Assembly (NCBI GenBank): GCA_964572175.1 | Contig: CAZNEH010000003.1 | Span: 7,488-68,384, forward strand | Length of the DNA: 60,897 nucleotides | Direction: 5' to 3' | Source of the DNA: an uncultured Gammaproteobacteria bacterium | Lineage (GTDB): Bacteria > Patescibacteriota > Patescibacteriia > UBA9570 > CAZNEH01 | Part shown: in pieces, positions 2,182 through 54,953 of the stretch | Layout: each line of letters begins with the position of its first letter | Position numbering within the stretch: the first letter of the stretch is position 1 | Program-made: the position numbers and the translations under genes | The notes under the pieces: model-generated | Told to the model about the DNA's origin: nothing | Databases searched by the model: none | The model's input: only the letters and a program-made list of their open reading frames with translations

Positions 2182-2229
2182 AAAAAAAGCGCCCAGGCCA
2201 AGTATCGAAGTACGAGGCGAGGGCTTGGT
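2182..2229 (-). terminator. intrinsic terminator of GC-rich cassette 1c
   Basis: GC-rich imperfect hairpin (GCCCTCGCC...GGCCTGGGC on the minus strand) followed by T7. Near-identical copy at 2924-2974. Confidence 0.6.
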
Positions 2230-2865
2230 CTAGGGGTGGCTGCCGTAGAGGGTCTGGATATTGATTCCTCGGCGTTCGGGGTACAGGAGCCAGATGTGGC
2301 GGATGACCTGGCGGCTGACCGGGTTGGATTCTTCGATCCGGGGGTGGTAGCTCACCAGCTTGACCCAGGCTTGTTCTCCGTCGCGAACTAGCTCTGGAGC
2401 TTCGGCGAAGACTCGGTGCTGGCCGTCTGGACCACGGTGGGTGGTCATGGGGAAGACGCGGTGAGCCATCTGGATGAACTGGCAGGCTCGCCACAGGCCG
2501 GGGTTGACATCGATGGATCCAGTTGTGTCCTTGTCATCGATGTGGTAGTTGATGCCCTGGTGATCTTGGGAAATCTGCTCGATCTGGCGGCGAAGACGGC
2601 GGATGCCCGAGGATCCGGTAGGGCCAGCCAGGACCAGGGTGGTCTGGTTGGGTTCGGTCTCGAAGCTGACGACCTGGTAGTCGGGGTGGCACTGGACCAC
2701 GACGTCGGCGGCCATGTAGTAGTCGCGCTTGAAGTTCCAGGGGTCTTCGGGGGAGACTCGGTGCCAGGAGCCGGTGAAGACGATGGTGACCAGGGTGAGA
2801 CCACTTTCGGACTGAAGAGTCTCGGGCTGGTTGGGAATGCGGATGGAACGAACGATGTAGGGCAT
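2230..2865 (-). CDS. GC-rich cassette protein of unknown family, paralog A (211 aa)
   Basis: Start moved to ATG 2865 (MPYIVRSIRIPNQ), 4 nt after AAGGAGG. The longer track ORF (to 2943) would read through its own promoter. It shares the blocks HRVFPMTTHRGPD.QHRVF and LVSYHP.IE..NPVSRQ with 2975-3622. No family recognised. Confidence 0.75.
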   Translation of the reverse strand: MPYIVRSIRIPNQPETLQSESGLTLVTIVFTGSWHRVSPEDPWNFKRDYYMAADVVVQCHPDYQVVSFETEPNQTTLVLAGPTGSSGIRRLRRQIEQISQDHQGINYHIDDKDTTGSIDVNPGLWRACQFIQMAHRVFPMTTHRGPDGQHRVFAEAPELVRDGEQAWVKLVSYHPRIEESNPVSRQVIRHIWLLYPERRGINIQTLYGSHP

Positions 2866-2891
2866 GAAGCCTCCTTGTGGGTTGTGGTCAT

Positions 2892-2919
2892 ACCTTACTA
2901 TAAATAATAATAATGTCAA
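2892..2919 (-). promoter_or_regulatory. promoter of cassette 1c
   Basis: Minus strand TTGACA (2914-2919), 16 nt spacer, TAAGGT (2892-2897). An AT-rich stretch between two GC-rich ORFs. Confidence 0.6.
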
Positions 2920-2923
2920 ATAT

Positions 2924-2974
2924 AAAAAAAGCGCCCAGGCCAAGTACCGTGAGGGTACGAGGCGAGGGCTTGGG
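2924..2974 (-). terminator. intrinsic terminator of cassette 1b
   Basis: Same GC hairpin plus T7 as 2182-2229. It begins right after the stop at 2975. Confidence 0.6.
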
Positions 2975-3622
2975 CTAGAAGCGACCGCTGTAGAAGGTGC
3001 GAACTTCGAACTGCATCTGATCGTGTCTGGGGGGCTCGATGAGTCTGATCTGGCGTCGGAGTTGGCGGCTGACCGGGTTGGCTTTCTCGATCTGGGGGTG
3101 GTAGCTCACCAGCTCGAGGCTGACCAGGTCGGGGCGCGGCAGTTCCGGGACCTTGCTGAAGACGCGGTGTTGGGCGTCCGGACCGCGGTGCGTGGTCATG
3201 GGGAAGACGCGGTGGATCATGATGATGAACTTGGCGGCTTCCTTCAGGCCAGGGTGTTCTTCGATGGATCCGGCGTGTCTCTGTGCCTGTACCTCGGGGG
3301 TGACGCCGTCGTGATCGCGGATGATCTGGTAGACCTTTTGCTGGAAGCGTCGGAGGGCGGACGAATCTTGGGATTCCGTGGCCAGGACCAGGGTGGTCTG
3401 ACTAGCGTTGCCCTCGAAGCTGATGACCCGGAACTCGGGGTAGCACTGGATGACCACGTCTGCGCCAGCGTAGTAGCTGGGGTGCCAGTCCTCGGCTGAG
3501 TCGTTGGTCGGGTCGGACTGGTTGCTGGTGAAGACAACAGTGACCAGAGTCAGCATGCCGGACTCGGACTTGTAGATCTGAGGCTTGGCGGTGATGCTGA
3601 GGGAGTGCGTGACGGTGGGCAT
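2975..3622 (-). CDS. GC-rich cassette protein of unknown family, paralog B (215 aa)
   Basis: Start moved to ATG 3622 (MPTVTHSLSITAK), 4 nt after AAGGAGG. By-eye alignment to 2230-2865 gives somewhat under half identical residues. Confidence 0.75.
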   Translation of the reverse strand: MPTVTHSLSITAKPQIYKSESGMLTLVTVVFTSNQSDPTNDSAEDWHPSYYAGADVVIQCYPEFRVISFEGNASQTTLVLATESQDSSALRRFQQKVYQIIRDHDGVTPEVQAQRHAGSIEEHPGLKEAAKFIIMIHRVFPMTTHRGPDAQHRVFSKVPELPRPDLVSLELVSYHPQIEKANPVSRQLRRQIRLIEPPRHDQMQFEVRTFYSGRF

Positions 3623-3648
3623 GGGGCCTCCTTGTAGGTTGTGATAGT

Positions 3649-3676
3649 ACCTTACTATAAATAAGAATAATGTCAA
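3649..3676 (-). promoter_or_regulatory. promoter of cassette 1b
   Basis: Minus strand TTGACA (3671-3676), 16 nt spacer, TAAGGT (3649-3654). Confidence 0.6.
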
Positions 3677-3680
3677 ATAT

Positions 3681-3730
3681 AAAAAAAGCGCCCTGGGGTT
3701 GTACCGAAGTACAGGGGTCCCAGGGACTTG
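3681..3730 (-). terminator. intrinsic terminator of cassette 1a
   Basis: Minus strand long hairpin CCCTGGGACCCCTGTAC-TTCG-GTACAACCCCAGGG followed by CGC and T7. Confidence 0.6.
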
Positions 3731-3782
3731 GGGCGCGCCAGGTGTGGCGCTAAGCGTTCGTTCTTGTTCTAGGGGTCAGCAG

Positions 3783-4970
3783 CTAGGCCGGGACCCAGAT
3801 GCCGTCGCGGACCACGATCTCCTGCTGGTCGAAGAACACGCGCTTGCCGCAGCCGCCGGGGCGGAAGTCGATCACCACGTCCACGTGCTGCTTGGAGTCG
3901 TTGTACACGCCCTCATCCTTGAGCTGCTTGATGCGGGCCTTGGCTTCCGCGCTCTCGTCGTCGCCGACGAAGGAGTAGGTGTAGCTTTCTCCGATGGCGA
4001 TGTGCAGGGTGCCGCCGACCTTCTCCACGAACAGGGGGTGCTTGAGGACGCGCTTGATGTGGGGGTTCATGCCCAGGGCGATCTCACCCAGACGATGGGA
4101 GCCCTCGTCGGTCTCGATGATCGAGGTGAGCTCGTCCATGCCCTGATCGGCCTTGTACTCCACGATCTTGCCGTCCACGAAGCGCAGGTAGATGCCCTGG
4201 ATGTCGGTGCCGGAGAAGTGGACGGGCAGGTCGACGAAGATCTCGCCTTCGACCGTGTTGGCGTCGGGGCTGGTGAAGATCTCGCCGTCGATCCAGTTCT
4301 TCTCGCCGGTGCACATGTAGCCCTTGCCCTGAGCGATGCTCATGGTGAGGGTGAGCTCGCGACCATCCGGATGCTCGGTGACGATGGTGACCTGGGAGGC
4401 CTCGTCGAAGAGCGGCTTGAGGGTCTTCTGGGGTTCGACCAGGATGTTGGGGTCCATGGTGGCTGCGGAGACCAGGAAGTCGGAGTACTCCTGAAGATCC
4501 ATGCCTTCCATGTCGGCGAAGCCCTGGGTCGGGAACAGGGTCAGAGTCCAGGGCTTGACCTTGAGGATGTCGCTGAGCCGCTTGTAGGCGGTCATGATCG
4601 CGGCAGTCCTCTCGGCCGGGAGTCCGGCGTAGAGCGAGGGGTCTTCCGAGCCCAGGACTTCGATGTACTTGTCGGCCCTCTCCCAGCGCTTGATCATGTA
4701 CTCCGGGGTTTCTTCGAGGGTCTCGAGGGGCAGGATGCGAGCGGCGGTGCCGGACCAGACGCGGGAGCGCTCCAGGTCGGGCGGGCAGAGGTAGATGTCC
4801 GGGATGCCGCCGGCTTCGAGAACCCTGTCCTGAAGGGCGCTCATCAGATCCCAGCAGCCGTATTCGCCGCGGATCATGATGACCTGGCCGGGCTCGACGC
4901 CTCCGATGCTGTGGTTGATGATGATGTCGGTCCAGGCGTTGAGGGCTTCGGGGCTGATGGTGGGCTGCAT
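3783..4970 (-). CDS. M29-family aminopeptidase (AmpS/PepS/aminopeptidase T type), GC-rich
   Basis: 395 aa. Family blocks recognised: GEIFTSP..VEGEIF, ETDEGSHRLGEIALGMN, VEKVGGTLHIAIGESY and HVDVVIDF. GGAGG lies 9 nt before ATG 4970. Confidence 0.8.
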   Translation of the reverse strand: MQPTISPEALNAWTDIIINHSIGGVEPGQVIMIRGEYGCWDLMSALQDRVLEAGGIPDIYLCPPDLERSRVWSGTAARILPLETLEETPEYMIKRWERADKYIEVLGSEDPSLYAGLPAERTAAIMTAYKRLSDILKVKPWTLTLFPTQGFADMEGMDLQEYSDFLVSAATMDPNILVEPQKTLKPLFDEASQVTIVTEHPDGRELTLTMSIAQGKGYMCTGEKNWIDGEIFTSPDANTVEGEIFVDLPVHFSGTDIQGIYLRFVDGKIVEYKADQGMDELTSIIETDEGSHRLGEIALGMNPHIKRVLKHPLFVEKVGGTLHIAIGESYTYSFVGDDESAEAKARIKQLKDEGVYNDSKQHVDVVIDFRPGGCGKRVFFDQQEIVVRDGIWVPA

Positions 4971-5066
4971 GGTGACAGGCCTCCGTTGGATGTGTCCCCC
5001 CTGAAGGAGACGGGTGGTTGAAGAACGAAAAGAGAGAGGCTCGGAAGCCTTCCTCTTTTACGCGGT

Positions 5067-5096
5067 TAGGTTATAAGAAAATGGGTATTTTGTCAA
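5067..5096 (-). promoter_or_regulatory. promoter of cassette 1a
   Basis: Minus strand TTGACA (5091-5096). The best -10 is TAACCT (5067-5072) at 18 nt. The -10 assignment is less certain than for the other cassettes. The leader is about 90 nt. Confidence 0.45.
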
Positions 5097-5100
5097 TATA

Positions 5101-5149
5101 AAAAAGCTCCCTCTCCACGGAGGTGGAGAGGGCGGGGGGAGAGGAGGGA
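5101..5149 (-). terminator. terminator after mrdA; copy A of the CCCTCTCCAC repeat
   Basis: Minus strand TCCTCTCCCCCCG-CCCTCTCCAC-CTCC-GTGGAGAGGG-AGC followed by a T-run. It matches the inverted copy at 24379-24425 at about 41 of 42 positions. Confidence 0.65.
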
Positions 5150-8363: not shown

Positions 8364-9419
8364 TTAAATTTCTATTCTATCGTCGGCAGTGCTTAAAACA
8401 AATAAGTCTTTAAGGTTTTCTAAGTCTTCTAAAATAAATCCAGTTCCTCGAGCTACCGTGGTTAGAGGGTCGTCAGCAGCGCGGACTGGAATATTAGTCG
8501 CTTGAGCAATTTTTTTATCTAAGCCTCGAAGCATGGCTCCGCCACCAGAAAGAATAATACCTCGTTCGTAAATATCAGAAACTAATTCAGGAGGGGTTTC
8601 TTCTAAGGTAGATTTAATATTATCTATAAATAAACTAACAGTTTTAGAAATAGCCTCGTTAACGTGTTCACTATTAATGACCACTTCTCTAGGAAGACCA
8701 GTGTTCATGTCTCTGCCTTTTACCTTGGCTTCTAGATTATCTTCTTTAGTGGCAGAGCTCATTTTAATTTTAAGTTCTTCAGCAGTATGTTCACCTAATA
8801 AGAAATTAAATTCTTCTCGGCAGTAATTAATAATATTTTGGTTTAGTTCGTCTCCGGCAACTCTTAAGGATCTCCAGGTAACGATTCCACCTAAAGAGAT
8901 AACTGCAATTTCAGTGCTGCCTCCGCCAATATCAACAACCATATTACCAGTAGAGTCTTGGATTGGTAAGCGGGCGCCAATAGCGGCAGCCATTGGTTCT
9001 TCGATTAAGTAGACTTTTCGAGCTCCAGCATTCATGGCCGCATCTTCTACGGCTTTTTTTTCTACTTCAGTAACGCCCATGGGAATAGCAATAACAATTC
9101 GAGGACGAGGTAAAATAGTAAAAGTTTCTCTATGAACCTTATCTATGAAATACTTAAGCATTTTTTCAGTAACTTCGAAATCAGAAACAACCCCTTGATG
9201 CAAGGGTCTGGAAGTGGTGATGTGTGGCGGGGTTTTACCAATCATGCGTTTGGCTTGTTGACCCACAGCTAAGATTTGATCAGTGTTGTTATTAAGAGCA
9301 ACTACTGAAGGTTCGTTAATAACAATGCCCCGGTCTTTTACATAAACCAGTGTATTAGCAGTTCCTAAATCTATTCCTAAATCTTTGGAAAATTTTCCTA
9401 AGATATTATTAAATACCAT
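8364..9419 (-). CDS. mreB: rod shape-determining protein MreB
   Basis: 351 aa actin-fold ATPase with motifs DLGTANTLVY and VVDIGGGSTEIAVISLGG. Confidence 0.95.
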   Translation of the reverse strand: MVFNNILGKFSKDLGIDLGTANTLVYVKDRGIVINEPSVVALNNNTDQILAVGQQAKRMIGKTPPHITTSRPLHQGVVSDFEVTEKMLKYFIDKVHRETFTILPRPRIVIAIPMGVTEVEKKAVEDAAMNAGARKVYLIEEPMAAAIGARLPIQDSTGNMVVDIGGGSTEIAVISLGGIVTWRSLRVAGDELNQNIINYCREEFNFLLGEHTAEELKIKMSSATKEDNLEAKVKGRDMNTGLPREVVINSEHVNEAISKTVSLFIDNIKSTLEETPPELVSDIYERGIILSGGGAMLRGLDKKIAQATNIPVRAADDPLTTVARGTGFILEDLENLKDLFVLSTADDRIEI

Positions 9420-14999: not shown

Positions 15000-16084
15000 A
15001 TATTTTTGTTAATTATTTTCCACGTCTCTTGAGCGCATTTTGACCAAGAGAATTTTTTAATTTGAGCAAAGCCTTTTTCTTTTAAGGCAGTATTATTAAT
15101 ATTTTTGGTAATAGTCTGGGCCATGTCTTCGATGCTGTAGGGGTCAAAGTAGAAGGCGGCTTGGCCAGCTACTTCTTTTAACGGAGGGATATGAGAGCAA
15201 ATTACTGGGGTACCAGCAGACATGGCTTCTAAAACTGGGATACCAAAGCCTTCATATAAAGAAGGAAAGATGAATGCTTCTGCTTGATTCATTATAGCAT
15301 TAATATCTTCTTGGTCTACATAGCCGGGTTCTATTATTCTGTTTTCTAGATTATGTTTTTTAATATTGGCTTGAACTTGTTCATACTTATAGCCCTCTCC
15401 TCCGACTAAGACTAGGTTGTATTCTTTGGGTAGTAAAGCAAAAGCATTGATTAACCGAGGAATATTTTTCTTTTCTTCTTTACGGCCAATAAATAATAAA
15501 TAAGGTTTTTTAATATTGTATTTATTTAATATTTCAGGGTTGGGTTGAGGTAGGGGGAAGAAATCTTTAGAAGTAAAGCCATTGTGAACAAAAGAAATTT
15601 TAGATTCTGGAATTTTGTAAAATTTAATTATTTCGTTTTTGGAGAATTCAGAAACAGAGATCAGGTGATGAGCTTTTTTAATGGCGTAGTTCATGGCCCA
15701 ACGGTGATAACCTAGTTCTTTGTCGCTATATAATTCTTTATGAGTAGCAAAGCCAATATCATGAGCGACTAGAATTGTTTTTTTGGGATGAATTAATGGA
15801 ATAGTGTGAGCAGGGATAAATAAAACATCAGGACGTTTGAAAAGCATTTCTAAAGAAAGGCGTATTTGAGTCCAGAGAAATTTTGGAGGCCAGTTTAAAA
15901 CTTTTGATTGCCAATTACTAGGTAAGTCCTCTAGCCCGCCCTGCAAAGGTTCTTTGGAATACAAAATCACCCTGATGTTATCAGGGATAATTTTTTTGAG
16001 TTCTTGAATAAGGTGGTAAGAGTACCACTCAGTACCAGTTTTTTGGATTTTATTGGCGCGGGAAGCGTCTATTCCAATAACCAT
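14996..16084 (-). CDS. glycosyltransferase family 4 (GT-B)
   Basis: 362 aa with an EX7E-type C-terminal motif (PSLYEGFGIPVLEAMSAGTPVI). Confidence 0.85.
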   Translation of the reverse strand: MVIGIDASRANKIQKTGTEWYSYHLIQELKKIIPDNIRVILYSKEPLQGGLEDLPSNWQSKVLNWPPKFLWTQIRLSLEMLFKRPDVLFIPAHTIPLIHPKKTILVAHDIGFATHKELYSDKELGYHRWAMNYAIKKAHHLISVSEFSKNEIIKFYKIPESKISFVHNGFTSKDFFPLPQPNPEILNKYNIKKPYLLFIGRKEEKKNIPRLINAFALLPKEYNLVLVGGEGYKYEQVQANIKKHNLENRIIEPGYVDQEDINAIMNQAEAFIFPSLYEGFGIPVLEAMSAGTPVICSHIPPLKEVAGQAAFYFDPYSIEDMAQTITKNINNTALKEKGFAQIKKFSWSKCAQETWKIINKNI

Positions 16085-40706: not shown

Positions 40707-40721
40707 GAGGGCTGACGTGTT

Positions 40722-40758: not shown

Positions 40759-40763
40759 ATTTA

Positions 40764-40896: not shown

Positions 40897-40902
40897 AAGC
40901 CA

Positions 40903-40932
40903 ACCTTAGCAAATAGAGGCATGGTTTGTCAA
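40903..40932 (-). promoter_or_regulatory. promoter of cassette 5c
   Basis: Minus strand TTGACA (40927-40932), 18 nt, TAAGGT (40903-40908). It abuts a plus-strand extended -10 (TGTTATAAT, 40933-41) for 41007-41318. Confidence 0.55.
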
Positions 40933-41006
40933 TGTTATAATTTTAGGATATAATAAGATAGAAAATAGTTTAGGACTTCCCTAATTAAAAATTAAAGTCT
41001 ATAACT

Positions 41007-41318
41007 ATGACTAAAAAACAGCAAAAAACTAAAAAGGTAACCACTGATCAAAAAGTTGATCAGGTCTTGGGAATTGTTAAAAAATCAGCTAAAAGACAAG
41101 AAGAATTAGCGGAAAATCAAGAATTAATTTTAAAGACAATGAATGAATTCTCCTCTAGAATAGAGGAAAAGATAGATAATATTGATATTAAAGTAGATAA
41201 AGTAGAAGATTCTTTAAAGAAAGGAATGAAAGGAATGGAAAATAGAATGGTTAATAAAGACTACTTAGATAGAAAGTTTGCCGCAGCTGGAATTAAAACA
41301 TCAACAATTCCGGTTTAA
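41007..41318 (+). CDS. small Lys/Glu-rich coiled-coil protein
   Basis: 103 aa with IEEKIDNIDIKVDKVEDSLKK repeats. It loosely resembles 19868-20218. Confidence 0.55.
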   Translation: MTKKQQKTKKVTTDQKVDQVLGIVKKSAKRQEELAENQELILKTMNEFSSRIEEKIDNIDIKVDKVEDSLKKGMKGMENRMVNKDYLDRKFAAAGIKTSTIPV

Positions 41319-42015: not shown

Positions 42016-42490
42016 TAAATAAGAAAATAATTACTAAAAATGTAGCAATGATTGCGACAGCTACTAAAATATACATTGCTTTTTGTTGCTGCGGGTCGGT
42101 ATATTCATGAGCGGCTATTTTTTCACTTGGTGATTCGCATTCGCTAACAGAACATATTTCTATTTGAGATTCTATTTCATTAATAGTAGAGCTAGCGCTT
42201 CCAGACAAGGCTTTGTCGTTGATTAAAACTACGGGAACGCCGTTGATATTTTTTTCGTAGATATCTGAAAGCTGAAGAAAGATTTTATTCCCCTCTTCTT
42301 CAGTGACATTGTATTCAGTGATATCGAGTTGAGGATATGTTTCTTTAAAGGTGTTTAACTCAGCTTCTACCTCGTGGCAATGCGGACAAGTAGGGCTATA
42401 GAAAAATAATAGCTCTACAGGATTTTCTTGAGCAAAAACAGGAAACGCAAAAAACGTTAATAATAAAACAAGTAAATATTTTTTAAACAT
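41990..42490 (-). CDS. secreted thioredoxin-fold thiol:disulfide oxidoreductase
   Basis: 166 aa with a signal peptide, a CPHC active site (FYSPTCPHCHEV) and a C-terminal TM. Confidence 0.7.
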   Translation of the reverse strand: MFKKYLLVLLLTFFAFPVFAQENPVELLFFYSPTCPHCHEVEAELNTFKETYPQLDITEYNVTEEEGNKIFLQLSDIYEKNINGVPVVLINDKALSGSASSTINEIESQIEICSVSECESPSEKIAAHEYTDPQQQKAMYILVAVAIIATFLVIIFLFNGRSTTKS

Positions 42491-42499
42491 GATATAAAA

Positions 42500-43162
42500 T
42501 TACTTTAACATCCCTTCTCCTAAAGGGTTGTATCCTGATTCGATTTCATCCCCATCATTGTATCCGTCACCGTCAGTGTCTTTTTTTAAGGGGTCAGTAC
42601 CATAAGTGGCCTCTTCTTCGTCTGTAAGGCCGTCACCGTCTGAATCTACAGCAACTGGAGTAGTATTAGTATTTTCGTTTGTGTTTGTGTTGGTGTTAGT
42701 GACTGTAGTATTAACGACATTAGTATTAGTAGTAGGAGTGGTTTCAGGAGTTTGGTTTAAGTAAAAATATAACCAAATTCCACCAGCAGCTAAAGCAGCG
42801 ATAACAATAATAGCCACAATAATTAAAATAGTTTTTTGCATCATAGAAAGACCTTCTCGACCAAATAGTTCAGCTTCGTCTTCAGTAGAAAGAGCGGCTT
42901 GCTCAGCAGTTGGAGGAGCAGCTTGAGGAGGGGTCATTTTTGGAGCTGGCTGAGGAGGGGTTAGCGGGGCAACTTGAGGTCTGGGAGCAGGGGTCGGAGC
43001 TGGAGCGGCTGGCTGCGGAGTAGGTGCTTTGGGAACGGGTCGAGGTTGAGGTTGTTGGGCAGGAAGATTTGGAGGAGTTGGCCCGCCTAGACTTGGCGAG
43101 GCTGGCCCGGCTGGAGTTTTAGGTTGAGGGGTTTGTTGAGGTTGTTGTACGTCGTCGAACAT
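42500..43162 (-). CDS. single-pass membrane protein: Pro-rich N-terminus, Thr/Asn-rich linker, thrombospondin-type-3-like Asp repeats
   Basis: 220 aa with PQQTPQPKTPAGP..., a TM (IILIIVAIIVIAALAAGGIWLYFY), NTNTNTNENTNT and DSDGDGLTDEEE...DTDGDGYNDGDE. Confidence 0.55.
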   Translation of the reverse strand: MFDDVQQPQQTPQPKTPAGPASPSLGGPTPPNLPAQQPQPRPVPKAPTPQPAAPAPTPAPRPQVAPLTPPQPAPKMTPPQAAPPTAEQAALSTEDEAELFGREGLSMMQKTILIIVAIIVIAALAAGGIWLYFYLNQTPETTPTTNTNVVNTTVTNTNTNTNENTNTTPVAVDSDGDGLTDEEEATYGTDPLKKDTDGDGYNDGDEIESGYNPLGEGMLK

Positions 43163-43223
43163 ATACTAGTTTTTAGTTTGTTAGTATTTAGTTGTTAGTA
43201 TTATACCATAATATAAAAAACTA

Positions 43224-43232
43224 TGCTATAAT
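43224..43232 (+). promoter_or_regulatory. extended -10 promoter, leaderless, for the histidine kinase
   Basis: TGCTATAAT. The ATG at 43241 is 8 nt after the -10. Confidence 0.5.
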
Positions 43233-43240
43233 ATATTTAT

Positions 43241-44872
43241 ATGTGGAAAATATTTAAAGATTTAAAGCTTAAGTATAAGCTATTTATTATTTTAGCGGTT
43301 TTACTTTATTTAGCCGTTAGTTCTTGGATTTTTAGTTTTTCAACTTTAAAAGACATTGATGATAGTTATTCTAGGTTAGAAAGTTACTCTTTGCCTAGTT
43401 TATTGGTTACCTCAGACTTAAAAGATAGTTTAAGTTTGTCTTTTGCTCAAGCGGCAGATTATGTGACTACTGGAAATCAAGAGTTTAAAACTCAGTTTAC
43501 AGAGAATTTTAAACAAGCTGTGGCTGCGGAGATTGATTTATTTGAGTTAGCCCAAACTGATGCGGATTTTGAGTTTACCCAGTTATTTGAAGAAGAGATT
43601 AATGAGATTAATCAAGGCTTAACTGGAATTATTGATAAATACGAAAAAGACCCAGAAAATTTTGCGGCTCAACAAGAATTAGCTAATTTAGGAGAGTTGC
43701 GAGATGATTTTGATATGTTTTTGGAAGAACAAGTGACTGTAAAAGCTCAGGCCCAGATTAATGAAGCTTCTAGTAAGATTGATAGCACTGTGAGCAGAGT
43801 TATTATTTATACTTGGTTTGTGGTAGCGGGAGTATTAATTATTACGGTAATTATTTTGTTTTTAATTCGACACAATATTACTAAGCCTGTAGAGATTTTA
43901 ACCGTGGCGGCCAAGAAAATGGGTAAAGGTAAATTTGAGCCCACTGGTTTAAAGCGTAATGATGAACTTGGTTTATTTGCGCAAACTTTTGATAAAATGG
44001 GAGTAGACATTACTAAAGCACGGGAAGACCTAGAAGCAGAATTAGTAAAAACTAAAGAACTTGATAAACAAAAAAGTGAGTTTTTATCTATTGCCGCCCA
44101 TCAATTAAGAACTCCAATGGCCGGAGTTAAATGGGTTATGGACATGTTGGTTGAGGGTGATATGGGGCCATTAACTGAAGAGCAAAAACATCATTTAAAA
44201 AATGGCGTAGATAATAGCACTAGAATGATCAAGTTGATTAATGACTTACTTGATGTGACTAAAATAGAAGCGCAAAAGTTTCAATATCAAATTGCTAAAG
44301 TAAACTTGGTAGAAGTAATTGATGAAGTTTTAGCAGAGTTCTCCGCCAATATAGAAAAGAAAAAGTTAAAAGTTGATCTACAAGTAGAAAAAGTAGTAGA
44401 GATAAATGTAGATCGTAAGAAGATTAATATTGCTTTATCTAATTTAATTGATAACGCGATTAAATATTCTCCAGAAGGAAAGACTATTACGGTTAGATTA
44501 GTTAAAGAAAAAGATGGTTTATTAATTACAGTGGCTGATCAAGGTTATGGGATTCCTGAAAAGCAACAAAATCAAGTATTTGATAAATTTTTTAGAGGAG
44601 CGAATATTTTAAAGATTGAAACAGACTACTCTACCATTGGAACTGGCTTAGGACTTCATTTAACTAAGGATATTATTGAAAAACATGAAGGTAAGATTTG
44701 GTTTGAGTCTGCAGAAAACAAAGGTACTAAATTCTTTATTAAACTTCCTTTAAATTTAAAAGTAGTAAAACAAGTTAAGACTAAAAAAGATATTCAAAGT
44801 CAGAAACAAAAAGTTTTAACTCCAGAAGAAATTGAAGAACTTAAGAAGAAGATACAAGATAAACAAAAATAA
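43241..44872 (+). CDS. sensor histidine kinase (periplasmic sensor-TM-HAMP-HisKA-HATPase)
   Basis: 543 aa with an H-box (SIAAHQLRTPM), an N-box (LIDNAIKYS) and G-boxes (DQGYGIP, GTGLGLHL). No response regulator is adjacent. Confidence 0.9.
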   Translation: MWKIFKDLKLKYKLFIILAVLLYLAVSSWIFSFSTLKDIDDSYSRLESYSLPSLLVTSDLKDSLSLSFAQAADYVTTGNQEFKTQFTENFKQAVAAEIDLFELAQTDADFEFTQLFEEEINEINQGLTGIIDKYEKDPENFAAQQELANLGELRDDFDMFLEEQVTVKAQAQINEASSKIDSTVSRVIIYTWFVVAGVLIITVIILFLIRHNITKPVEILTVAAKKMGKGKFEPTGLKRNDELGLFAQTFDKMGVDITKAREDLEAELVKTKELDKQKSEFLSIAAHQLRTPMAGVKWVMDMLVEGDMGPLTEEQKHHLKNGVDNSTRMIKLINDLLDVTKIEAQKFQYQIAKVNLVEVIDEVLAEFSANIEKKKLKVDLQVEKVVEINVDRKKINIALSNLIDNAIKYSPEGKTITVRLVKEKDGLLITVADQGYGIPEKQQNQVFDKFFRGANILKIETDYSTIGTGLGLHLTKDIIEKHEGKIWFESAENKGTKFFIKLPLNLKVVKQVKTKKDIQSQKQKVLTPEEIEELKKKIQDKQK

Positions 44873-44886
44873 ATAAATTTAAAACA

Positions 44887-44917
44887 GTCCCCCGGCTAAA
44901 GCCGAGGGACATTTTTT
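44887..44917 (+). terminator. terminator after the histidine kinase
   Basis: GTCCCCCGGC-TAAA-GCCGAGGGAC followed by ATTTTTT. Confidence 0.65.
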
Positions 44918-44960
44918 ATACTCAAGTTTAATGTCCTGCCCCTTTAGGGGTAGGACTGAC

Positions 44961-49772: not shown

Positions 49773-49854
49773 ATAGTTATTATACCTGGAATTAAGTTTG
49801 ACGGCAAGCTATTTTTTTGGTTTAATTAAGGGGTAATAATTAAATTTAAAAAAT

Positions 49855-50877
49855 ATGACAGAGCCAGGAGCTAACCCTCGAATTGATCGACCAACTGCCG
49901 GAGCTAATTTTTATGTGCCAGATAAAATTAAAGAAGTTCCAGAAAAAATTAGAGAAGAGGTTAAGGGTGAGTACAGAAAGTTAATGGTGGCTACCCTAAA
50001 AAGATATGATCGTAATCAGACTCCAGTTGATGTGGCCATGCCTGCCTTTTTAAGTTTACAGGAATCTCATTTTGAAAGAGCTATAGAAAGAGTTCGTTTA
50101 AAAAGAGAGGCTCAAACAGATGAGTTAACTGGTCTTTTAAAAGTGACGGCCATGACTAATCAATATGAGATTACTCGAAAGAGATTATCTAATGAAAGTA
50201 CTCCAGAAGATCAGTGTGCAGTAGTTATTACTTTTGATTTAGACTTTTTTAGACAGATAAATGATAAAATAGGACATCCAGGAGCAGATACTATTTTAGC
50301 AGAGATTGGTCAAAAATTAGGAGATGAGTCTAACAATTTAAGACCTGGTGATATTGCTGGTCGGGTAGGTGGAGACGAGTTTGCAATGATTTTAAGCAAC
50401 ATAAAAAAATCTGAAGTAGAAACAGCTATTCAAAGAATTCATCAAATAGTTGGGTCTATTTCTAGACCAGAAATTGGAGAAGTAAAAAGTAGTTTTGGAG
50501 CTTTGATTATTAATAAGGGAGATACTAGGCTTTTTGATGATGTGCGAACAGCAAGTGACGAGGCGACCTATGGAGTTAAAGACTATGGTCGTAATGGATA
50601 TGCTATTGTTGATGGGGATCAAGTAAAGATTGTTAATAGAGATGAGAATGGTGAATATCAAGAAAGTTACCAAGGGACTGAAATGCCTAAACCAGATGAG
50701 GCTCATCGAATAAAAGAAGTTGGTAATGCAATACAAAGAATTACCGAGGAAATGGATAAAGCTAAAGAAAAGCCTTGTTTTGATAAAGCTAAAATGACTG
50801 AAGTGGAGTCAGCTGTAGAAACTATTGGTAAAGCTTATTTTGAAGCTAAGAATTGTAACGAGAGTATTACAGAGTAG
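49855..50877 (+). CDS. GGDEF-domain protein (putative diguanylate cyclase)
   Basis: 340 aa with RVGGDEFAMIL and upstream FDLDFFRQINDKIGHPGAD. The N- and C-terminal extensions are of unknown function. Confidence 0.8.
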   Translation: MTEPGANPRIDRPTAGANFYVPDKIKEVPEKIREEVKGEYRKLMVATLKRYDRNQTPVDVAMPAFLSLQESHFERAIERVRLKREAQTDELTGLLKVTAMTNQYEITRKRLSNESTPEDQCAVVITFDLDFFRQINDKIGHPGADTILAEIGQKLGDESNNLRPGDIAGRVGGDEFAMILSNIKKSEVETAIQRIHQIVGSISRPEIGEVKSSFGALIINKGDTRLFDDVRTASDEATYGVKDYGRNGYAIVDGDQVKIVNRDENGEYQESYQGTEMPKPDEAHRIKEVGNAIQRITEEMDKAKEKPCFDKAKMTEVESAVETIGKAYFEAKNCNESITE

Positions 50878-51808
50878 TGATTGGACGAGATTGAGTAATG
50901 TAAAACTTAGATTTATATAAAGCCCATTCGATATCTTGAGGGGAGCCATAGTGCTCCTCTATTTTTTGACAGATAATAGAAAGTTTTTTGATTTGAGCGT
51001 CAGTAAGTTTTTGTTTGCTGGCCTTAGTTTTAGGAACCTTCTTCTCCTCTACTCCAGCAGTTTTAGTTTTTACGATCATCATGTTTTGTTCAGAAATGTT
51101 TTTGTCTAAAATTCGAGGAATGTTTCCTTTGGCGATAACATAGGTGTCTGGAGTAACTAAGCCACCAACAATAGCCTCTCCTAACCCGTAGCCAGCTTCT
51201 AAAACTATTTGGTCAAGATCGCGGGTAACAGGATGAGCAGTAAAGGTTATGCCAGAGATTTCGGATTGAACCATGGTTTGGATGACGACCGCCACAGAGA
51301 CTTTAGCGTCTTGTAAGTTTTTTTCGTAGCGGTAGAAGATGGCGCGCGGAGTAAATAAAGAGGACCAGCATTTTTTGACGCTGTCTAGTAAATCTTTATT
51401 GGTTACGTTTAAATATGTTTCTAACTCACCAGCCCAAGAAGCAACTTTAGAATCTTCGGCTGTGGCAGAAGAACGAATAGCTACGAACTTGGCTTTTAGT
51501 TTTTTAAAGTCAGCTTCGATTTCTTTGGCAATGTCTTTTGGGAATTCTACGTCGGCAATAAGATCTCTGATTACATTAGAAGCTTTGTCAACGGAATTAA
51601 TATCTTCAAAGTTTACTTTTTTTAATTGAGTAATAATTTCGACATTAAGGTCGGTCTCTTCTAAGAAACGGTCAAAGGCATTGGCCGTAACTACAAAGCC
51701 AGGAGGAACCGGGATTTTAGCTTGAGTCATCTCGCCCAAAGAAGCGCCTTTTCCCCCAGCCTCGTTCACGCTTTTTTTATTAATTTTTTTGAAGTTTTTA
51801 CAATACAT
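50867..51808 (-). CDS. stand-alone PpsA/PPDK-type N-terminal ATP-grasp (nucleotide-binding) subunit
   Basis: Start set at MYCKNFKK (51808). The track start is a GTG inside repeat 51818-51884. Motifs: AGGKGASLGEM, VAIRSSATAEDS, and an end at YITQSRPITTL, the usual end of the PPDK_N domain. There is no swivel or TIM-barrel domain. Confidence 0.85.
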   Translation of the reverse strand: MYCKNFKKINKKSVNEAGGKGASLGEMTQAKIPVPPGFVVTANAFDRFLEETDLNVEIITQLKKVNFEDINSVDKASNVIRDLIADVEFPKDIAKEIEADFKKLKAKFVAIRSSATAEDSKVASWAGELETYLNVTNKDLLDSVKKCWSSLFTPRAIFYRYEKNLQDAKVSVAVVIQTMVQSEISGITFTAHPVTRDLDQIVLEAGYGLGEAIVGGLVTPDTYVIAKGNIPRILDKNISEQNMMIVKTKTAGVEEKKVPKTKASKQKLTDAQIKKLSIICQKIEEHYGSPQDIEWALYKSKFYITQSRPITTL

Positions 51809-51817
51809 AGTTTCGAG

Positions 51818-51884
51818 GACCGAGATAAACTCGGTCACAACAGCCCATCCTAACAGTGCTGTTGTGATCTAGCTTGTCTAGATC
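51818..51884 (+). repeat. triple-hairpin intergenic repeat, full copy
   Basis: Three consecutive hairpins: GACCGAG-ataaa-CTCGGTC, ACAACAGC-loop-GCTGTTGT and GATCTAG-cttgt-CTAGATC. Confidence 0.85.
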
Positions 51885-51893
51885 TATAAAGAT

Positions 51894-52901
51894 TTATTTG
51901 ATTATTTTTATTATACCCTTATCAGCATTAATTTCAACCTTGTCTCCGTCTTTGAGGGCTTGAGTGGCGATTTTAGTAGCGACGATGCAAGGTTTTTTTA
52001 GTTCGCGGGCGACGATAGCGGCGTGGCAAGTGATACCGCCTTCGTCTGTGATAATAGCTGCGGCGCGCTTCATGGCTGGTAAATAACGAGGATCGGTCAT
52101 AGAAGCGACTAGGATGTCCCCTTCTGTTATGTTTTTAGCTTGGTCAACTTTGGTTATTATTTTAACCGGGCCCTCTACTTTTCCAGGATAAGCAGATTGT
52201 CCTTTAATCTCTTTAATGTTTTTTACATCATCAAAAAAATGTTTGATTAATTCAGGATTATAAAATATTTCTTCGCCTTGACCACTGTGTTTTATGAGAA
52301 TAAATTTTTTTCTGGGTGAGATATCTGGTATTATGCCTGTTTTTAAAAAATTATTAAATTCATCAATGGTTAAATAAAAAAGAGTGTCTTTTTCTAAGTC
52401 TAATTCTTGTTCTACTTTTGGTAAAAGATTTCTTTCTAAGGTAAAGCATTGTTTATGAACGTTTTCATATTTTTTTCTGATAGTAAAAGCAAAATCGCGG
52501 ACGTCTTTATTTTGATGGTGTTCAGGGGCTTCGTAACCGATCATGATAATATTACTAAAATTAACAAAGTATTTAATTAATTCTTGTAGAGCATTTAAAT
52601 TATTTGAATGTTTTTTGTTATAGAATAATTCAAATTCTTTTTTCTTTTGACTATATTGAGATTCTATTTTTTTTAGTTTATTTAAATCTAGATGTTTGTA
52701 TAAATTTTCATGTCTTAAAAGAGCATCTTTTTTGGGCATGAAATGATAAAAAGTGTCTTCTTTAAGGATAAGGTAGAAAGGATTTGGGGAGCAGTTAAAG
52801 AATTTTTTGTTTTCATTAAAAAGTCCTTGAATAACAATAGAGGCTCCTAAAATGGAATAGTCCCTTTGGTGTTTTTCGTAGTCTAAGTCTTTATTTAACA
52901 T
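51894..52901 (-). CDS. swivel-domain protein 1: unknown N-terminal domain + PEP-utilising-enzyme mobile (phosphohistidine) domain
   Basis: 335 aa. C-terminus: GQSAYPGKVEGPVKII...GDILVASMTDP...TDEGGITCHAAIVARELKKPCIV...DGDKVEINADKGII. Confidence 0.85.
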   Translation of the reverse strand: MLNKDLDYEKHQRDYSILGASIVIQGLFNENKKFFNCSPNPFYLILKEDTFYHFMPKKDALLRHENLYKHLDLNKLKKIESQYSQKKKEFELFYNKKHSNNLNALQELIKYFVNFSNIIMIGYEAPEHHQNKDVRDFAFTIRKKYENVHKQCFTLERNLLPKVEQELDLEKDTLFYLTIDEFNNFLKTGIIPDISPRKKFILIKHSGQGEEIFYNPELIKHFFDDVKNIKEIKGQSAYPGKVEGPVKIITKVDQAKNITEGDILVASMTDPRYLPAMKRAAAIITDEGGITCHAAIVARELKKPCIVATKIATQALKDGDKVEINADKGIIKIIK

Positions 52902-52907
52902 GGTTTT

Positions 52908-52916
52908 ATTATATCA
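52908..52916 (-). promoter_or_regulatory. extended -10 promoter, leaderless, for 51894-52901
   Basis: Minus strand TGATATAAT. The ATG at 52901 is 6 nt after the -10. Confidence 0.5.
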
Positions 52917-52963
52917 CAAATGGTTTTTTTGCCTAATTTTAGCCTATTTAAGGGGGTTATATC

Positions 52964-52992
52964 TTGACAAGGGGGTGAAAGTGTGTTATCCT
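52964..52992 (+). promoter_or_regulatory. promoter of GC-rich cassette 6a
   Basis: TTGACA (52964-52969), 17 nt, TATCCT (52987-52992). Confidence 0.6.
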
Positions 52993-53075
52993 ACTATGAT
53001 CGTAGCGCAAGGCAAATTCAGCCTTAGCGGACGTGAATCGACACGCTCTTCCCCCACCCTCCACCAGGAGAAACG

Positions 53076-53744
53076 ATGAACCCTATCGTCAACACCCCCT
53101 CCCCGGCCTACATGGCCTTCCTGTCCCTCCTCATCAGCCAGACCATCCAGTCCGGCAACCGCATCGTCGTGACCGTGTGCCACGGTGACAAGCGCAAGCG
53201 TGAGAGCGATGGCGTCGAGGAGCTCACCGAGCTCGGTCACGCCCAGGGCGGCGTGGACGCCATGTTCATCAAGAGCGTCGTGCCCCAGGGCATCAAGCTC
53301 GAGATCCTCTGGTCCGGCCATCACCGGACGGATCAGATGGCCAAGATCCACGCGGGCGTCTTCCCCGAGGCCGAGGTCATCAAGGACGAGGAGCTGGACT
53401 TCGTGCCCGCCTACGAGGCTCACCTGGATGGTGATCTCGACAAGTTCAAGGCCGAGGTCGCGGCGATCAACAGCGCCGGCGGCACGGTGGGCAATGCCCG
53501 GATCCTCGCGGCCAAGCACGAGATCTCCGGCTACGCCTCCCAGATGACCGATGACGTGTCTGGCTGGGTGACGAAGCAGCGGGCCCAGATCGTCCTCGGC
53601 ATGGGGCACCGCTGCTGGGCCAACGGCGCGGCTCACCACGACACGCCCTTCATGCCGAACGTGGGCGACATGTACTTCCACCTGGTCTCCGCCGATGGCG
53701 AGATCATGGACGTGATCTACGTGCCCTGCCCGCTCTCGGCCTAG
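53076..53744 (+). CDS. GC-rich cassette: divergent histidine-phosphatase-superfamily-like protein (CHG in place of RHG)
   Basis: 222 aa with AGGAG 5 nt before the ATG. Blocks align by eye to the PGAM/SixA-type pattern: IVVTVCHGDK...LTELGHAQ (RHG...LT..G..QA), ILWSGHHRTDQMA (SS..RA.QTA) and QIVLGMGHRCW (late His). Confidence 0.45.
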   Translation: MNPIVNTPSPAYMAFLSLLISQTIQSGNRIVVTVCHGDKRKRESDGVEELTELGHAQGGVDAMFIKSVVPQGIKLEILWSGHHRTDQMAKIHAGVFPEAEVIKDEELDFVPAYEAHLDGDLDKFKAEVAAINSAGGTVGNARILAAKHEISGYASQMTDDVSGWVTKQRAQIVLGMGHRCWANGAAHHDTPFMPNVGDMYFHLVSADGEIMDVIYVPCPLSA

Positions 53745-53766
53745 CGACGACGGCCTCACGGCCAAG

Positions 53767-53819
53767 CCCCCTCCTCTTCATTCCCTCACGGGAGTGCGGA
53801 GGACGGGGCGCTTTTTTTT
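53767..53819 (+). terminator. terminator of cassette 6a
   Basis: CCCCCTCCTC...GAGGACGGGG stem (9 of 10 paired) followed by CGC and T8. Confidence 0.6.
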
Positions 53820-53888
53820 GACCGAGATAAACTCGGTCACAACAGCACAAATTAAAAAAGTACTGTTGTGATCTAGCTTGTCTAGATC
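53820..53888 (+). repeat. triple-hairpin intergenic repeat, full copy inside GC-rich patch 6
   Basis: Same arms as 51818-51884; the middle loop differs (cacaaattaaaaaagta) and the middle stem is one bp shorter. It lies exactly between the 6a terminator and the 6b promoter. Confidence 0.85.
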
Positions 53889-53898
53889 ATCAACTAGG

Positions 53899-53927
53899 TT
53901 GACAAGCACGGTGAAATGCGGTTAGAT
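53899..53927 (+). promoter_or_regulatory. promoter of GC-rich cassette 6b
   Basis: TTGACA (53899-53904), 17 nt, TTAGAT (53922-53927). Confidence 0.6.
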
Positions 53928-53963
53928 AAAAGGGAATTCAAGCGTCCGAAGGAGGGTAAGAAA

Positions 53964-54890
53964 ATGAGTGTGATTCCGTTCAGTGAGACTGTGGCTACGC
54001 GTTTGGCTGGTGGTGAGCATCTGATGATCCTGGTGCAGCCGGGCGAGAGGGTCGATGGCAAGCTGACCAACATCGGAATGCGGAGAAGTCGGTGGGCGGC
54101 CGAAGTTCTCAAGGGATTGATACCTGATCGGTTGGTGCCTCAGGTATTCTATGACCCCAGTGATCCAGTGGCTCGTTGTACGGCCGAGGTCATCGTCGAG
54201 GGCACTGACGGGCATCTGATGGGTACGCACAGCTCTCTGGATTCTGGAGGCTTGCCCCAGAATACGACCGAATGGGTTCAGAGCCCTCATCGTCAGTCTG
54301 GCACCGTGAACATCGGAGTGAGCGTCACGACCAAGGTTCTGGCTGGAGGTAAGCACGAGAACTTTGGTCCGGGATGCCTGATCTATTACTTCGTCTCCTC
54401 TGGGGGGAGGATCGTGAGCACGATCTACGGTTACCCCGGCCTGGAAGAAGAGCGTGCTGATCGTCGGCGAGAGGGTTACAACTCGGCTGAGAGCCATGTG
54501 GCTGTGGTCTTCATTCGTGACCTGGAAGCAGCCGTGGAGATGGTTGCTAACCCTAAGATCCATGGTCGGCTTCGAGAGTTGAGCTACCAGACCGTGAGGA
54601 TCTACGCCCCAGGACCTGCGATACTAGAGTTCATGGAGGCTGCAGATCAGTTCCACCGGCTCCTGGAGGATACTCGGATCGAGCTTGACACCAGGTTGAC
54701 TCACGCTGACTCGATGGACACGCCGATCCACCTGGCCTGGGGTATCGGTTGGAACCTGAAGCTGGGCCAGGCAGCAATTGTACTTGGTCAGTGGGAGTGG
54801 CGTTGGTTTGGTCCGAAGGTCAAGGCCGTGATCTATTTCATCGACCAGAAGACCCTGCGGGTCTGCGACCACGAGACTATCGAGGTCTAA
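53964..54890 (+). CDS. GC-rich cassette: 308-aa protein with a degenerate histidine-phosphatase-like N-terminal half (QPG in place of RHG)
   Basis: Start set at MSVIPFSETVAT (53964), 8 nt after GAAGGAGG. LMILVQPGERVDGKLTNIGMRRSRWAAEVL and VFYDPSDPVARCTAEVI follow the same spacing as the RHG...LT..G and S...RA.QTA blocks. The C-terminal half is of unknown function. Confidence 0.4.
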   Translation: MSVIPFSETVATRLAGGEHLMILVQPGERVDGKLTNIGMRRSRWAAEVLKGLIPDRLVPQVFYDPSDPVARCTAEVIVEGTDGHLMGTHSSLDSGGLPQNTTEWVQSPHRQSGTVNIGVSVTTKVLAGGKHENFGPGCLIYYFVSSGGRIVSTIYGYPGLEEERADRRREGYNSAESHVAVVFIRDLEAAVEMVANPKIHGRLRELSYQTVRIYAPGPAILEFMEAADQFHRLLEDTRIELDTRLTHADSMDTPIHLAWGIGWNLKLGQAAIVLGQWEWRWFGPKVKAVIYFIDQKTLRVCDHETIEV

Positions 54891-54908
54891 GCGGTGGAGG
54901 ACCGCTGT

Positions 54909-54953
54909 CAGCGCAAGGAGTTCTCTGCGGAGAGCTCTGAGCGCTGTTTTTTT
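54909..54953 (+). terminator. terminator of cassette 6b
   Basis: CAGCGC...GAGTTCTC-TGCG-GAGAGCTC...GCGCTG hairpin followed by T7. Confidence 0.6.

Follow-up and report, generated by a model that had tools for sequence, protein, structure and literature searches.

Single genes that travel with their own expression signals have been described in phages as morons, which are defined by a promoter and a terminator of their own and by a deviant GC content (PMC3594210). In bacterial chromosomes, minimal mobile elements (MMEs) are defined as different whole-gene cassettes that lie between two conserved genes and are exchanged by homologous recombination (PMC3082526). Horizontal gene transfer, genomic islands and competence have been documented in Patescibacteria, with competence and pili reported as prevalent (PMC12455944). 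Here we describe a window of 60,897 nucleotides (the whole stretch of DNA that was analysed; positions 7,488 to 68,384 of contig CAZNEH010000003.1, assembly GCA_964572175.1), in which a backbone of ~36% GC is interrupted by six patches at 47-67% GC. By reading the sequence together with tables of open reading frames (ORFs), we delimited eleven GC-rich units (cassettes), labelled c1 to c11, of which nine code for proteins while c5 and c9 are RNA-like. We consider it probable that these units are self-expressing islets of one gene each, which were acquired by horizontal transfer and have ameliorated to different degrees.

The units resemble the morons of HK97/HK022-type phages in being single genes, with their own promoter and factor-independent terminator, set between two resident genes; in both cases the GC content is deviant, the gene is missing from related genomes, and the cargo is often small, orphan and accessory (PMC3594210). 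Judged by sequence, every unit has a promoter and a terminator of its own and a base composition unlike that of the flanking genes, and the contents of the c6 and c7-c9 slots are additions relative to related genomes. Unlike morons, the units lie in a bacterial core chromosome, flanked by greA, PBP2, the mreBCD region, alaS, infA and ribosomal protein genes and not by those of a phage or prophage, and no phage genes nearby or phage-family matches were seen. Moreover, eleven of them occur in 53 kb, and the contrast extends to the Shine-Dalgarno (SD) sequence, which marks the units and not the host. The c6 slot, between infA and alaS, is also comparable to the MMEs of Neisseria, in that a conserved gene pair holds strain-specific cassettes; here this was seen at one slot only, through contig L035 described below. 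As with MMEs, no mobility genes belonging to the units were found among the scanned ORFs or by the tRNA search of the window. Exchange of MMEs by natural transformation and homologous recombination in the flanks has been proposed, and the definition of an MME includes neither the strongly foreign composition nor the full set of private expression signals seen here (PMC3082526).

Integron cassettes are likewise small, mostly single-ORF and often orphan, have a hairpin end, and stand in tandem, as the units do at some sites (c3-c2-c1). They are, however, mostly promoterless and held in one array, whereas the units have their own promoters and true U-run terminators and occupy six loci in both orientations (minus strand for c1-c4, in patches 1 and 2, and for c7 and c9). 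An integron reading was rejected because the patches contain no attC-like cores (RYYYAAC...GTTRRRY pairs: 8 in the window, none of them inside a patch, by a simple regular expression and not HattCI) and the window no integrase (IntI) or attI. Nor is this a classical genomic island, as the original prediction had held: ARAGORN called no tRNA in the window, no integrase, transposase or recombinase domain was found in the scanned window ORFs or in the annotated ORFs of the retrieved contigs, and a repeat search found no target-site duplications at the units. The accompanying claim that flanking direct repeats are lacking applies to such duplications but not to palindromic repeats, which border several units. 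The islands and transfers described in Patescibacteria are also deviant, horizontally acquired DNA for which uptake by competence has been proposed, but the islands are multi-gene, and most of the inferred transfers are between Patescibacteria; promoters are mentioned 0 times in that paper, and no promoter-SD-terminator unit architecture is described (PMC12455944). The present finding is denser and more stereotyped than usual. The undescribed cassette mechanism that had been suggested is not demonstrated, and the pattern fits morons and minimal mobile elements.

Composition and reading frames of the units

In a scan with 300-nt windows, the GC content of the backbone was ~0.23-0.45, and values of 0.51-0.67 were obtained at 2101-5100, 22801-23100, 36901-37200, 39901-40800 and 53101-54900, with a smaller rise at 28.8-29.1 kb. 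GC at third codon positions (GC3) was 0.59-0.93 in the nine cassette ORFs, against a mean of 0.30 (sd 0.06, maximum 0.47) in 58 native ORFs, a strong difference that had been predicted. The series ran from c10 (0.93), c3 (0.92) and c4 (0.89) through c2 and c7 (both 0.84), c1 (0.79) and c6 (0.76) to c11 (0.67) and c8 (0.59). In the chosen frames GC3 exceeded GC1, which exceeded GC2, and this pattern was missing from the alternative long ORFs of the patches; it is the signature expected of genuine genes in GC-rich DNA and supports the frames chosen, although that of c8 is less certain because its GC3 is only 0.59. Of the six patches originally predicted, that at 28625-29035 has a GC content of only ~47-52% and no SD-led ORF, and holds a structured RNA that could be native.

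Within the GC-rich units, automatic gene callers picked ORFs in the wrong frame or on the wrong strand (40074-40451 in place of 40129-40401, and in patches 1 and 6), which we ascribe to their training on the AT-rich backbone. For c7, the call made by the pipeline behind a Logan contig was an ORF of 125 aa in a different frame, and a gene caller placed the start of c6 at 36964 and not at 36988; c11 is the only cassette protein present, as called, in a collection of 15 billion proteins. Since the units are mis-framed, absence from protein databases is weak evidence and scans at the DNA level weigh more. Proteins of this kind would be systematically missing from such databases, and the cassettes under-counted in surveys.

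Expression signals of the units and of native genes

Each unit can be read as an autonomous module made of a promoter, an ORF preceded by a leader and SD, or an RNA, and a terminator (Table 1). The -35 element is a perfect TTGACA in ten units and TTGTCA in c8, where it overlaps the -35 element of c7 on the opposite strand. TTGACA is under-represented in the window (23 occurrences on both strands, against ~39 expected from base composition), and 10 of the 23 mark the 5' edge of a GC-rich unit in the orientation required. Promoter spacers are 16-18 nt long and the -10 elements fit TAnnnT; TAAGGT is found in five units (c1, c2, c7, c8 and c9) and not in four as first counted. All 11 units end in a hairpin followed directly by 6-8 U, with hairpin energies of -15 to -41 kcal/mol and z scores of -1.3 to -6.2 (z <= -2.4 in 7 of the 11).

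Table 1. Positions and signals of the eleven GC-rich units and of two repeat elements beside them.
Feature	Position	Strand	Promoter (-35, spacer, -10)	Leader and SD	ORF or product	3' end or location
c1	2180-2919	-	TTGACA, 16 nt, TAAGGT	SD AAGGAGG	ORF 2230-2865 (211 aa, orphan)	hairpin + U7
c2	2923-3676	-	TTGACA, 16 nt, TAAGGT	SD AAGGAGG	ORF 2975-3622 (215 aa, orphan)	hairpin + U7
c3	3680-5096	-	TTGACA (5096-5091), 17 nt, TAACCT	leader ~100 nt; SD GGAGG	ORF 3783-4970 (395 aa, Peptidase_M29)	hairpin + U7
c4	22757-23096	-	TTGACA, 17 nt, TAGGAT	SD GGAG	ORF 22815-23027 (70 aa, hydrophobic)	hairpin + U7
c5	28624-29036	+	TTGACA, 17 nt, TATCAT		structured RNA ~380 nt, no SD-led ORF; ~50% GC	hairpin + U8
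c6	36919-37300	+	TTGACA, TATAAA	SD GGGAGG	ORF 36988-37236 (82 aa, N-terminal hydrophobic helix)	hairpin + U6
c7	40078-40451	-	TTGACA, 17 nt, TAAGGT	SD AAGGAGG	ORF 40129-40401 (90 aa, orphan)	hairpin + U7
c8	40445-40759	+	TTGTCA, 17 nt, TAAGGT	SD GAGGAGG	ORF 40503-40706 (67 aa, Cys-rich)	hairpin + U8
c9	40762-40932	-	TTGACA, 18 nt, TAAGGT		transcript ~135 nt	hairpin + U6
c10	52964-53820	+	TTGACA, 17 nt, TATCCT	leader ~80 nt; SD AGGAG	ORF 53076-53744 (222 aa, orphan)	hairpin + U8
c11	53899-54956	+	TTGACA, 17 nt, TTAGAT	SD AAGGAGGG	ORF 53964-54890 (308 aa, orphan)	hairpin + U7
46-nt GC-rich palindromic terminator element (family I1)	5100-5145					directly upstream of c3 promoter
Nested-palindrome repeat element (inverted pair; families D15, I2, I4)	53819-53893					c10-c11 spacer

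An SD of the form AAGGAGG, GAGGAGG, GGGAGG, GGAGG, AGGAG or GGAG was found 4-9 nt before the ATG in all nine cassette ORFs. The median predicted energy of pairing with the anti-SD was -11.4 kcal/mol for these nine, compared to -0.6 kcal/mol for the 58 native ORFs, and a GGAG, GAGG or AGGA core at -16 to -4 was present in 9/9 and 8/58, respectively. In 20 of the 58 native ORFs a TAnnnT element, often TATAAT, lies 4-10 nt before the start codon (for example at 40067-40080, 22730-22750, 43225-43240, 49773-49790 and 52902-52920). The closeness of these elements to native starts, together with the near lack of SDs, suggests that leaderless translation may be widespread among the native genes of this organism. 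The eleven self-terminated units, their -35 hexamers and closing hairpins with T-runs, the strong SDs of the nine protein units and, in essence, the lack of SDs in native genes were thus as the original prediction had described them. AT-rich promoters between adjacent GC-rich ORFs, which it had also noted, were seen, but in c10 and c11 the spacer of the promoter is itself 53-59% GC, and the AT-rich stretch between these two units is largely a repeat element that is found at two native sites too.

The units are tightly packed between native operons, which are undamaged, and native -10 elements sometimes start only 2-15 nt from the U-run of a cassette. The hairpin and U7 of c7 abut the extended -10 element of the leaderless-looking mnmA gene, such that the U-run is followed by GC and then by TATAAT, 6 nt before the mnmA ATG.

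Occupancy of the slots in related genomes

The host is a Patescibacteria bacterium, and the best named matches of its native AlaRS were Patescibacteria and Parcubacteria metagenome-assembled genomes. The closest of the syntenic relatives, L006 (72% identity in AlaRS), is colinear with the window in the order HK / 220-aa / Grx-like / 240-aa / mnmA / alaS. In L006 the 240-aa gene abuts mnmA, whereas the window has 1226 bp at this place, containing c7, c8, c9 and an AT-rich ORF. In L007 (AlaRS 63% identical) and L008/L009 (62%), the order mnmA-alaS-infA-rpmJ-rpsM-rpsK-rpsD-rpoA-rplQ-rplM-rpsI is kept, no cassette is present upstream of mnmA, and the alaS-infA gap measures 162 and 193 nt, respectively, compared to 566 nt in the window, where c6 accounts for 382. 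The c6 slot is therefore empty in L007 and L008, and the c7-c9 slot in L006, L007 and L008. The AT-rich ORF of the latter slot (41007-41318, plus strand) codes for a 103-aa orphan and is also missing from L006, which indicates that this slot takes AT-rich cargo too.

An exact-protein look-up of InfA retrieved L035, a 628-bp ENA contig of a sister strain in another sample, which is 92.9% identical to window positions 36526-36920 (infA and its upstream region). The identity stops a few bases before the -35 element of c6. Beyond this break, in the orientation of c6, L035 carries another TTGACA promoter (TTGACAAAAGTAAATATTTATGCTATGTT) and another GC-rich ORF (MPRFSTKRFVRQDD...), whose SD is GGGAG. 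As homology ends upstream of the -35 element and the promoter changes with the cargo, the promoter belongs to the variable unit. These two slots are thus empty or differently filled in relatives, as a check proposed with the original prediction had anticipated. The suggestion that genes had been captured into native promoter and terminator slots is contradicted by L035; capture from a high-GC donor is in keeping with the foreign composition of the units and with the presence of c3 relatives in high-GC bacteria.

GC-richer stretches escaped the gene calls in L008 (33% GC) as well. One, at 2928-3190, is an ORF of 87 codons with a tRNA-like fragment (GGTTCGATCCCCGCG) after it; another, of ~390 nt at 3745-4137, resembles a structured RNA gene.

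The junctions in the window were compared with Logan contigs, an independent assembly of the same read set (SRR8146440) by a different assembler. These contigs were 100% identical to the window at 26065-30539, 31007-44956 and 53819-55128. They span c5, c6 and c7-c9 with both junctions, and also the upstream spacer of c11, the whole of c11 and its downstream junction into a native gene. Identical sequence through the junctions, from a second assembler, indicates that they are not assembly artefacts, an outcome in favour of the original prediction.

Cargo of the units

Only one cassette protein could be placed in a family, in keeping with the original prediction that most products would be unplaceable small proteins. 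c3 matches the Peptidase_M29 profile over its full length (PF02073, residues 9-367, E 4e-46; 158 bits, where the curated cut-off is 27), and 1426 homologues were obtained at E<=1e-20. Its named relatives, at 52-57% identity, belong to Acidobacteria, Deltaproteobacteria, Thermoanaerobaculales and similar groups, and one homologue lies in a contig of 70% GC and has a GC3 equal to the 0.92 of c3. The nearest relative, P0003 (67% identity), is on L002, a 1.6-kb Logan contig from another run, where a GC-rich gene (0.63; GC3 0.79) with a GAGGAG SD sits in AT-rich flanks. P0003 adjoins sequence resembling a tRNA 3' end; ARAGORN called no tRNA on L002. A clade-specific scan of GTDB representatives found no close relatives of c3 and P0003. 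A scan of JGI metagenomes with the same two proteins gave 25 hits, all at <=56% identity, with the GC content of contig and gene matching in nearly all of them, and none was a cassette of this type. A partial exception was L011, where a gene of GC 0.51 lies in flanks of 0.31-0.41 but without the cassette architecture.

None of the eight other proteins rose above noise in comparisons with Pfam, NCBIfam, PHROG and PADLOC families; a reading as defence systems was rejected, as PADLOC gave only sub-threshold ZorB noise, for c6. For c1 and c2, no relatives were found by word-indexed search of a 5.8-billion-protein index, or in GTDB representatives, JGI metagenomes and IMG/VR, and an exhaustive HMMER search of 1.84 billion representatives returned repetitive-protein noise only. 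c1 had no tblastn matches in GenBank phages or PLSDB plasmids, c6, c7, c8, c10 and c11 had no relatives in IMG/VR, and c10 and c11 none among plasmids. c1 and c2 are tandem paralogues with 47% amino acid identity, a dS of 0.57, a dN/dS of ~0.8 and conserved C-terminal blocks in common; by these values they are a fast-evolving family, and the tandem pair would be a sign of continuing turnover. AF2 models had pLDDT values of 48.6 for c1 (with c2 as alignment) and 49.0 for c10, for which the Foldseek TM score of ~0.23 is meaningless. c10 gave a weak PGAM/histidine-phosphatase-like match to 3eoz, a phosphoglycerate-mutase-like chain (E 0.087), with RHG changed to CHG. A histidine-phosphatase fold for c10 and c11, tied to the PEP-utilizers paralogues around them, is speculative, a lead from one weak PDB match.

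The RNA of c5 (28650-29036, plus strand) has a predicted minimum free energy of -137.6 kcal/mol (z -2.9) and a long-range stem that closes its 5' and 3' ends, and no Rfam family was matched at the gathering threshold or at E<=10. It may be a native structured RNA and not an import, and could represent an undescribed non-coding RNA of this candidate phyla radiation (CPR) lineage. c9 contains GGAGAC but no AUG, and at best an ACG-started micro-ORF of 15 codons; its fold has an energy of -42.6 kcal/mol (z -2.2), and it is either a small RNA or a decayed gene. RNase P, tmRNA, SRP and 6S RNA were rejected as identities of the GC-rich patches, since nothing was found in Rfam, with gathering or permissive thresholds, or by ARAGORN; the SD-led ORFs in most of the patches, whose GC3 pattern is that of coding sequence, also counter a reading as ordinary RNA genes.

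Acquisition and expression of the units

If the units are horizontally acquired islets, each would act as an autonomous transcription unit of the sigma-70 type in an intergenic spacer between core operons. The near-consensus promoter, presumably recognised by the sigma-70 holoenzyme of the host, would produce a short GC-rich mRNA. This mRNA would be structured, and initiation on it would rely on the strong SD, whereas the AT-rich and often leaderless native mRNAs would initiate without one; unstructured start regions can substitute for an SD. The strong intrinsic terminator would insulate neighbouring native genes. Whole units, promoter included, would be present, absent or replaced at one slot among related genomes, and their high GC content would point to an origin in high-GC donors, either directly or via a cassette pool of related CPR strains. 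Acquisition probably occurred by DNA uptake followed by recombination in conserved flanks. The spread of GC3 from 0.93 to 0.59 suggests incomplete amelioration and different residence times under AT-biased mutation; in a rough two-state calculation, the values of c1 and c2 (dS 0.57, GC3 ~0.8) were compatible with decay from ~0.92 since a duplication within the lineage. The cargo, namely an aminopeptidase, small membrane or Cys-rich proteins and fast-evolving orphans, suggests niche or conflict functions and not housekeeping ones.

Patescibacteria have tiny, streamlined genomes, and their hosts are mostly not known. Eleven self-expressing, foreign and strain-variable units in 53 kb may illustrate how such genomes gain functions without classical mobile elements. 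The units could serve as markers for tracing donors or hosts, and the restriction of strong SDs to imported GC-rich genes would amount to a natural experiment in translation initiation.

Several observations weigh against acquisition as independent islets. Replacement at the strain level was seen at one slot only, in a 628-bp contig of low coverage that covers only one end of the variant slot. No donor was identified for eight of the nine proteins, which had no relatives in any collection searched. Promoter families are common to unrelated cargo and one of them includes a native promoter, which independent imports do not predict. The nearest relative of c3, on L002, is also in AT-rich flanks, and genes in a truly GC-rich context are at <=57% identity, such that the GC-richness of c3 either persisted in AT-rich genomes or arrived in two separate imports from a donor that has not been sampled. 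No competence genes lie in the window.

Shared promoters, terminators and border repeats

Three promoter families were recognised. F1 (TTGACAAAA...TTTTATGnTAnnAT) comprises the promoters of c3, c4, c5 and the L035 unit and a native promoter at 24376 that drives an AT-rich native gene; the c4 promoter resembles this native promoter and that of c3. F2, with the TAAGGT -10 element, comprises c1, c2, c7, c8 and c9, and F3 (TTGACAAG..GGTGAAA) comprises c10 and c11. The 3' end of the terminator, GGGCGCUUUUUUU (GGGCGC and a U-run), is common to c1, c2, c3 and c10. Two palindromic elements adjoin units (Table 1). The 46-nt element next to c3 has an inverted copy, 96% identical, at 24383-24428, 19 kb off and beside an F1 promoter, and a diverged copy at 23140-23190 upstream of c4; it behaves like a small repeated intergenic element. 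The nested-palindrome element contributes three exact 21-mers, against 0 expected. Its 34-nt core (GTGCTGTTGTGATCTAGCTTGTCTAGATC...) is also found at 30514-30547 and 51856-51889, upstream of the native HD_4 and PPDK_N genes, and a similarly built element lies 3' of the M29 cassette on L002 (1455-1545). Possible roles of this 34-nt element are those of an operator, a terminator and a recombination site. No sequence was common to all unit borders.

Native terminators of this genome come in repeated families as well: those at 1485-1510, downstream of greA, and at 54963-54995, downstream of the gene at 55002, belong to one hairpin family, ACCGYGGGG.CC..TACCCGCGGT.

The shared modules could reflect convergence in promoter design, local duplication as for c1 and c2, a common cassette pool or a real recombination mechanism. 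Conservation of the c1 and c2 promoters was considered as evidence for framework modules and set aside, since AT sites change more slowly when mutation is AT-biased, and this, combined with selection on promoter elements and terminator stems, can account for it. The promoter families, and the palindromes at some borders, leave some room for a dedicated mechanism, in which a pool of ready-to-express cassettes with standard promoter, leader and terminator modules would be inserted or swapped at intergenic hairpins in a way not yet recognised. We regard such a pool as doubtful. Single-stranded DNA that has been taken up may recombine at terminator-like palindromes in a structure-directed way, or the units may be moved by a recombinase whose gene lies outside the window; the latter, if site- or structure-specific, would amount to a platform that is integron-like but dispersed and self-expressing, which we hold to be just as doubtful. 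Sharing of F1, F2 and F3 and of terminator 3' ends by unrelated cargo, the occurrence of palindromic repeats at unit borders in both orientations, the look-alike element next to the related M29 cassette of L002 and the start of the swapped segment of L035 just upstream of the -35 element are all in favour of a platform. Against it, the scanned ORFs of the 61-kb window encode no recombinase, integrase or transposase domain, the patches have no attC-like pairs and the borders no universal sequence. In addition, the TTGACA, A-tract, T-tract and TGn extended -10 features could have converged in strong promoters or, for c1 and c2, been duplicated locally, and an AT-rich promoter is expected to outlast synonymous sites under AT-biased mutation. 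Were the pool to exist, the GC-rich, SD-dependent cargo could come from the high-GC host of this bacterium, and the cassettes would be a fingerprint of that host.

Other origins of the GC-rich units

Common styles of promoter, leader and terminator may also indicate that the units derive from one high-GC phage or plasmid with early-type signals of its own, whose pieces were dispersed by rearrangement or sampled repeatedly. Phage early regions and morons typically contain small orphan ORFs with strong expression signals (PMC3594210), and the units form clusters of two or three at three sites. We nevertheless consider a single donor unlikely. In the searches given above, no cassette protein matched a PHROG, an IMG/VR contig, or a GenBank phage or plasmid. 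An origin in phages or plasmids was rejected, since seven scans of IMG/VR, the PHROG searches and the tblastn comparisons with GenBank phages and PLSDB plasmids were all without hits. The wide range of GC3 (0.59-0.93) suggests that the units differ in age or source. Their six slots are separate, lie among conserved core genes and have no genes for structural or replication proteins close by, and one promoter family is also used by an AT-rich native gene.

That the units are old residents, kept GC-rich by selection on mRNA structure or stability or on SD-dependent regulation, appears decidedly improbable. c3 and its L002 relative are both GC-rich in AT-rich flanks despite 33% protein divergence, and strong SDs are kept even in c8 and c11, the units with the lowest GC3, as would be expected of residents. 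However, the c6 and c7-c9 slots are empty in syntenic relatives, and a strain with 93% identity has other content in one of them. Homologues in other Patescibacteria are lacking for eight of the nine proteins, and the GC3 spread and the values for c1 and c2 fit continuing amelioration.

An assembly or binning chimera, in which reads of a high-GC organism were joined into an AT-rich contig, is very unlikely to the point of being hardly credible: the contig is metagenome-derived and its composition switches over tens of bases, but the Logan assembler reproduced the junctions listed above, every unit has native intergenic sequence on either side, in which the native promoters and terminators are intact, AT-rich promoters separate neighbouring GC-rich ORFs, and a sister strain from another sample has the same kind of unit in the same slot.

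Native genes and other features of the window

The native ORFs encode GreA, PBP2, MreC, two MreB proteins, a ProRS-like protein, an RseP-like M50 protein, RRF, a block of ribosomal proteins and RpoA, InfA and AlaRS; MnmA, riboflavin genes, ThiI, glycosyltransferases and ABC-2 permeases were also identified. The MreB paralogues are at 8364-9419 and 16084-17091, with the DNA repeat families D16, D18 and D19 between them. AlaRS (37312-39045) is short, at 577 aa, and is without the usual C-terminal extension, as in CPR relatives. In the rplQ/rpoA region, 34016-34123 (plus strand) gave a sub-threshold Rfam match to the eukaryotic Vault RNA (31.7 bits against a gathering threshold of 34, E 0.005), which is almost certainly due to chance. 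A tandem array of five paralogues that end in a PEP-utilizers (phospho-histidine swivel) domain lies within 50867-52901 and 55002-60797. The region of the array also encodes a separate PPDK_N ATP-binding protein and an HD-domain protein, and c10 and c11 sit inside the array.

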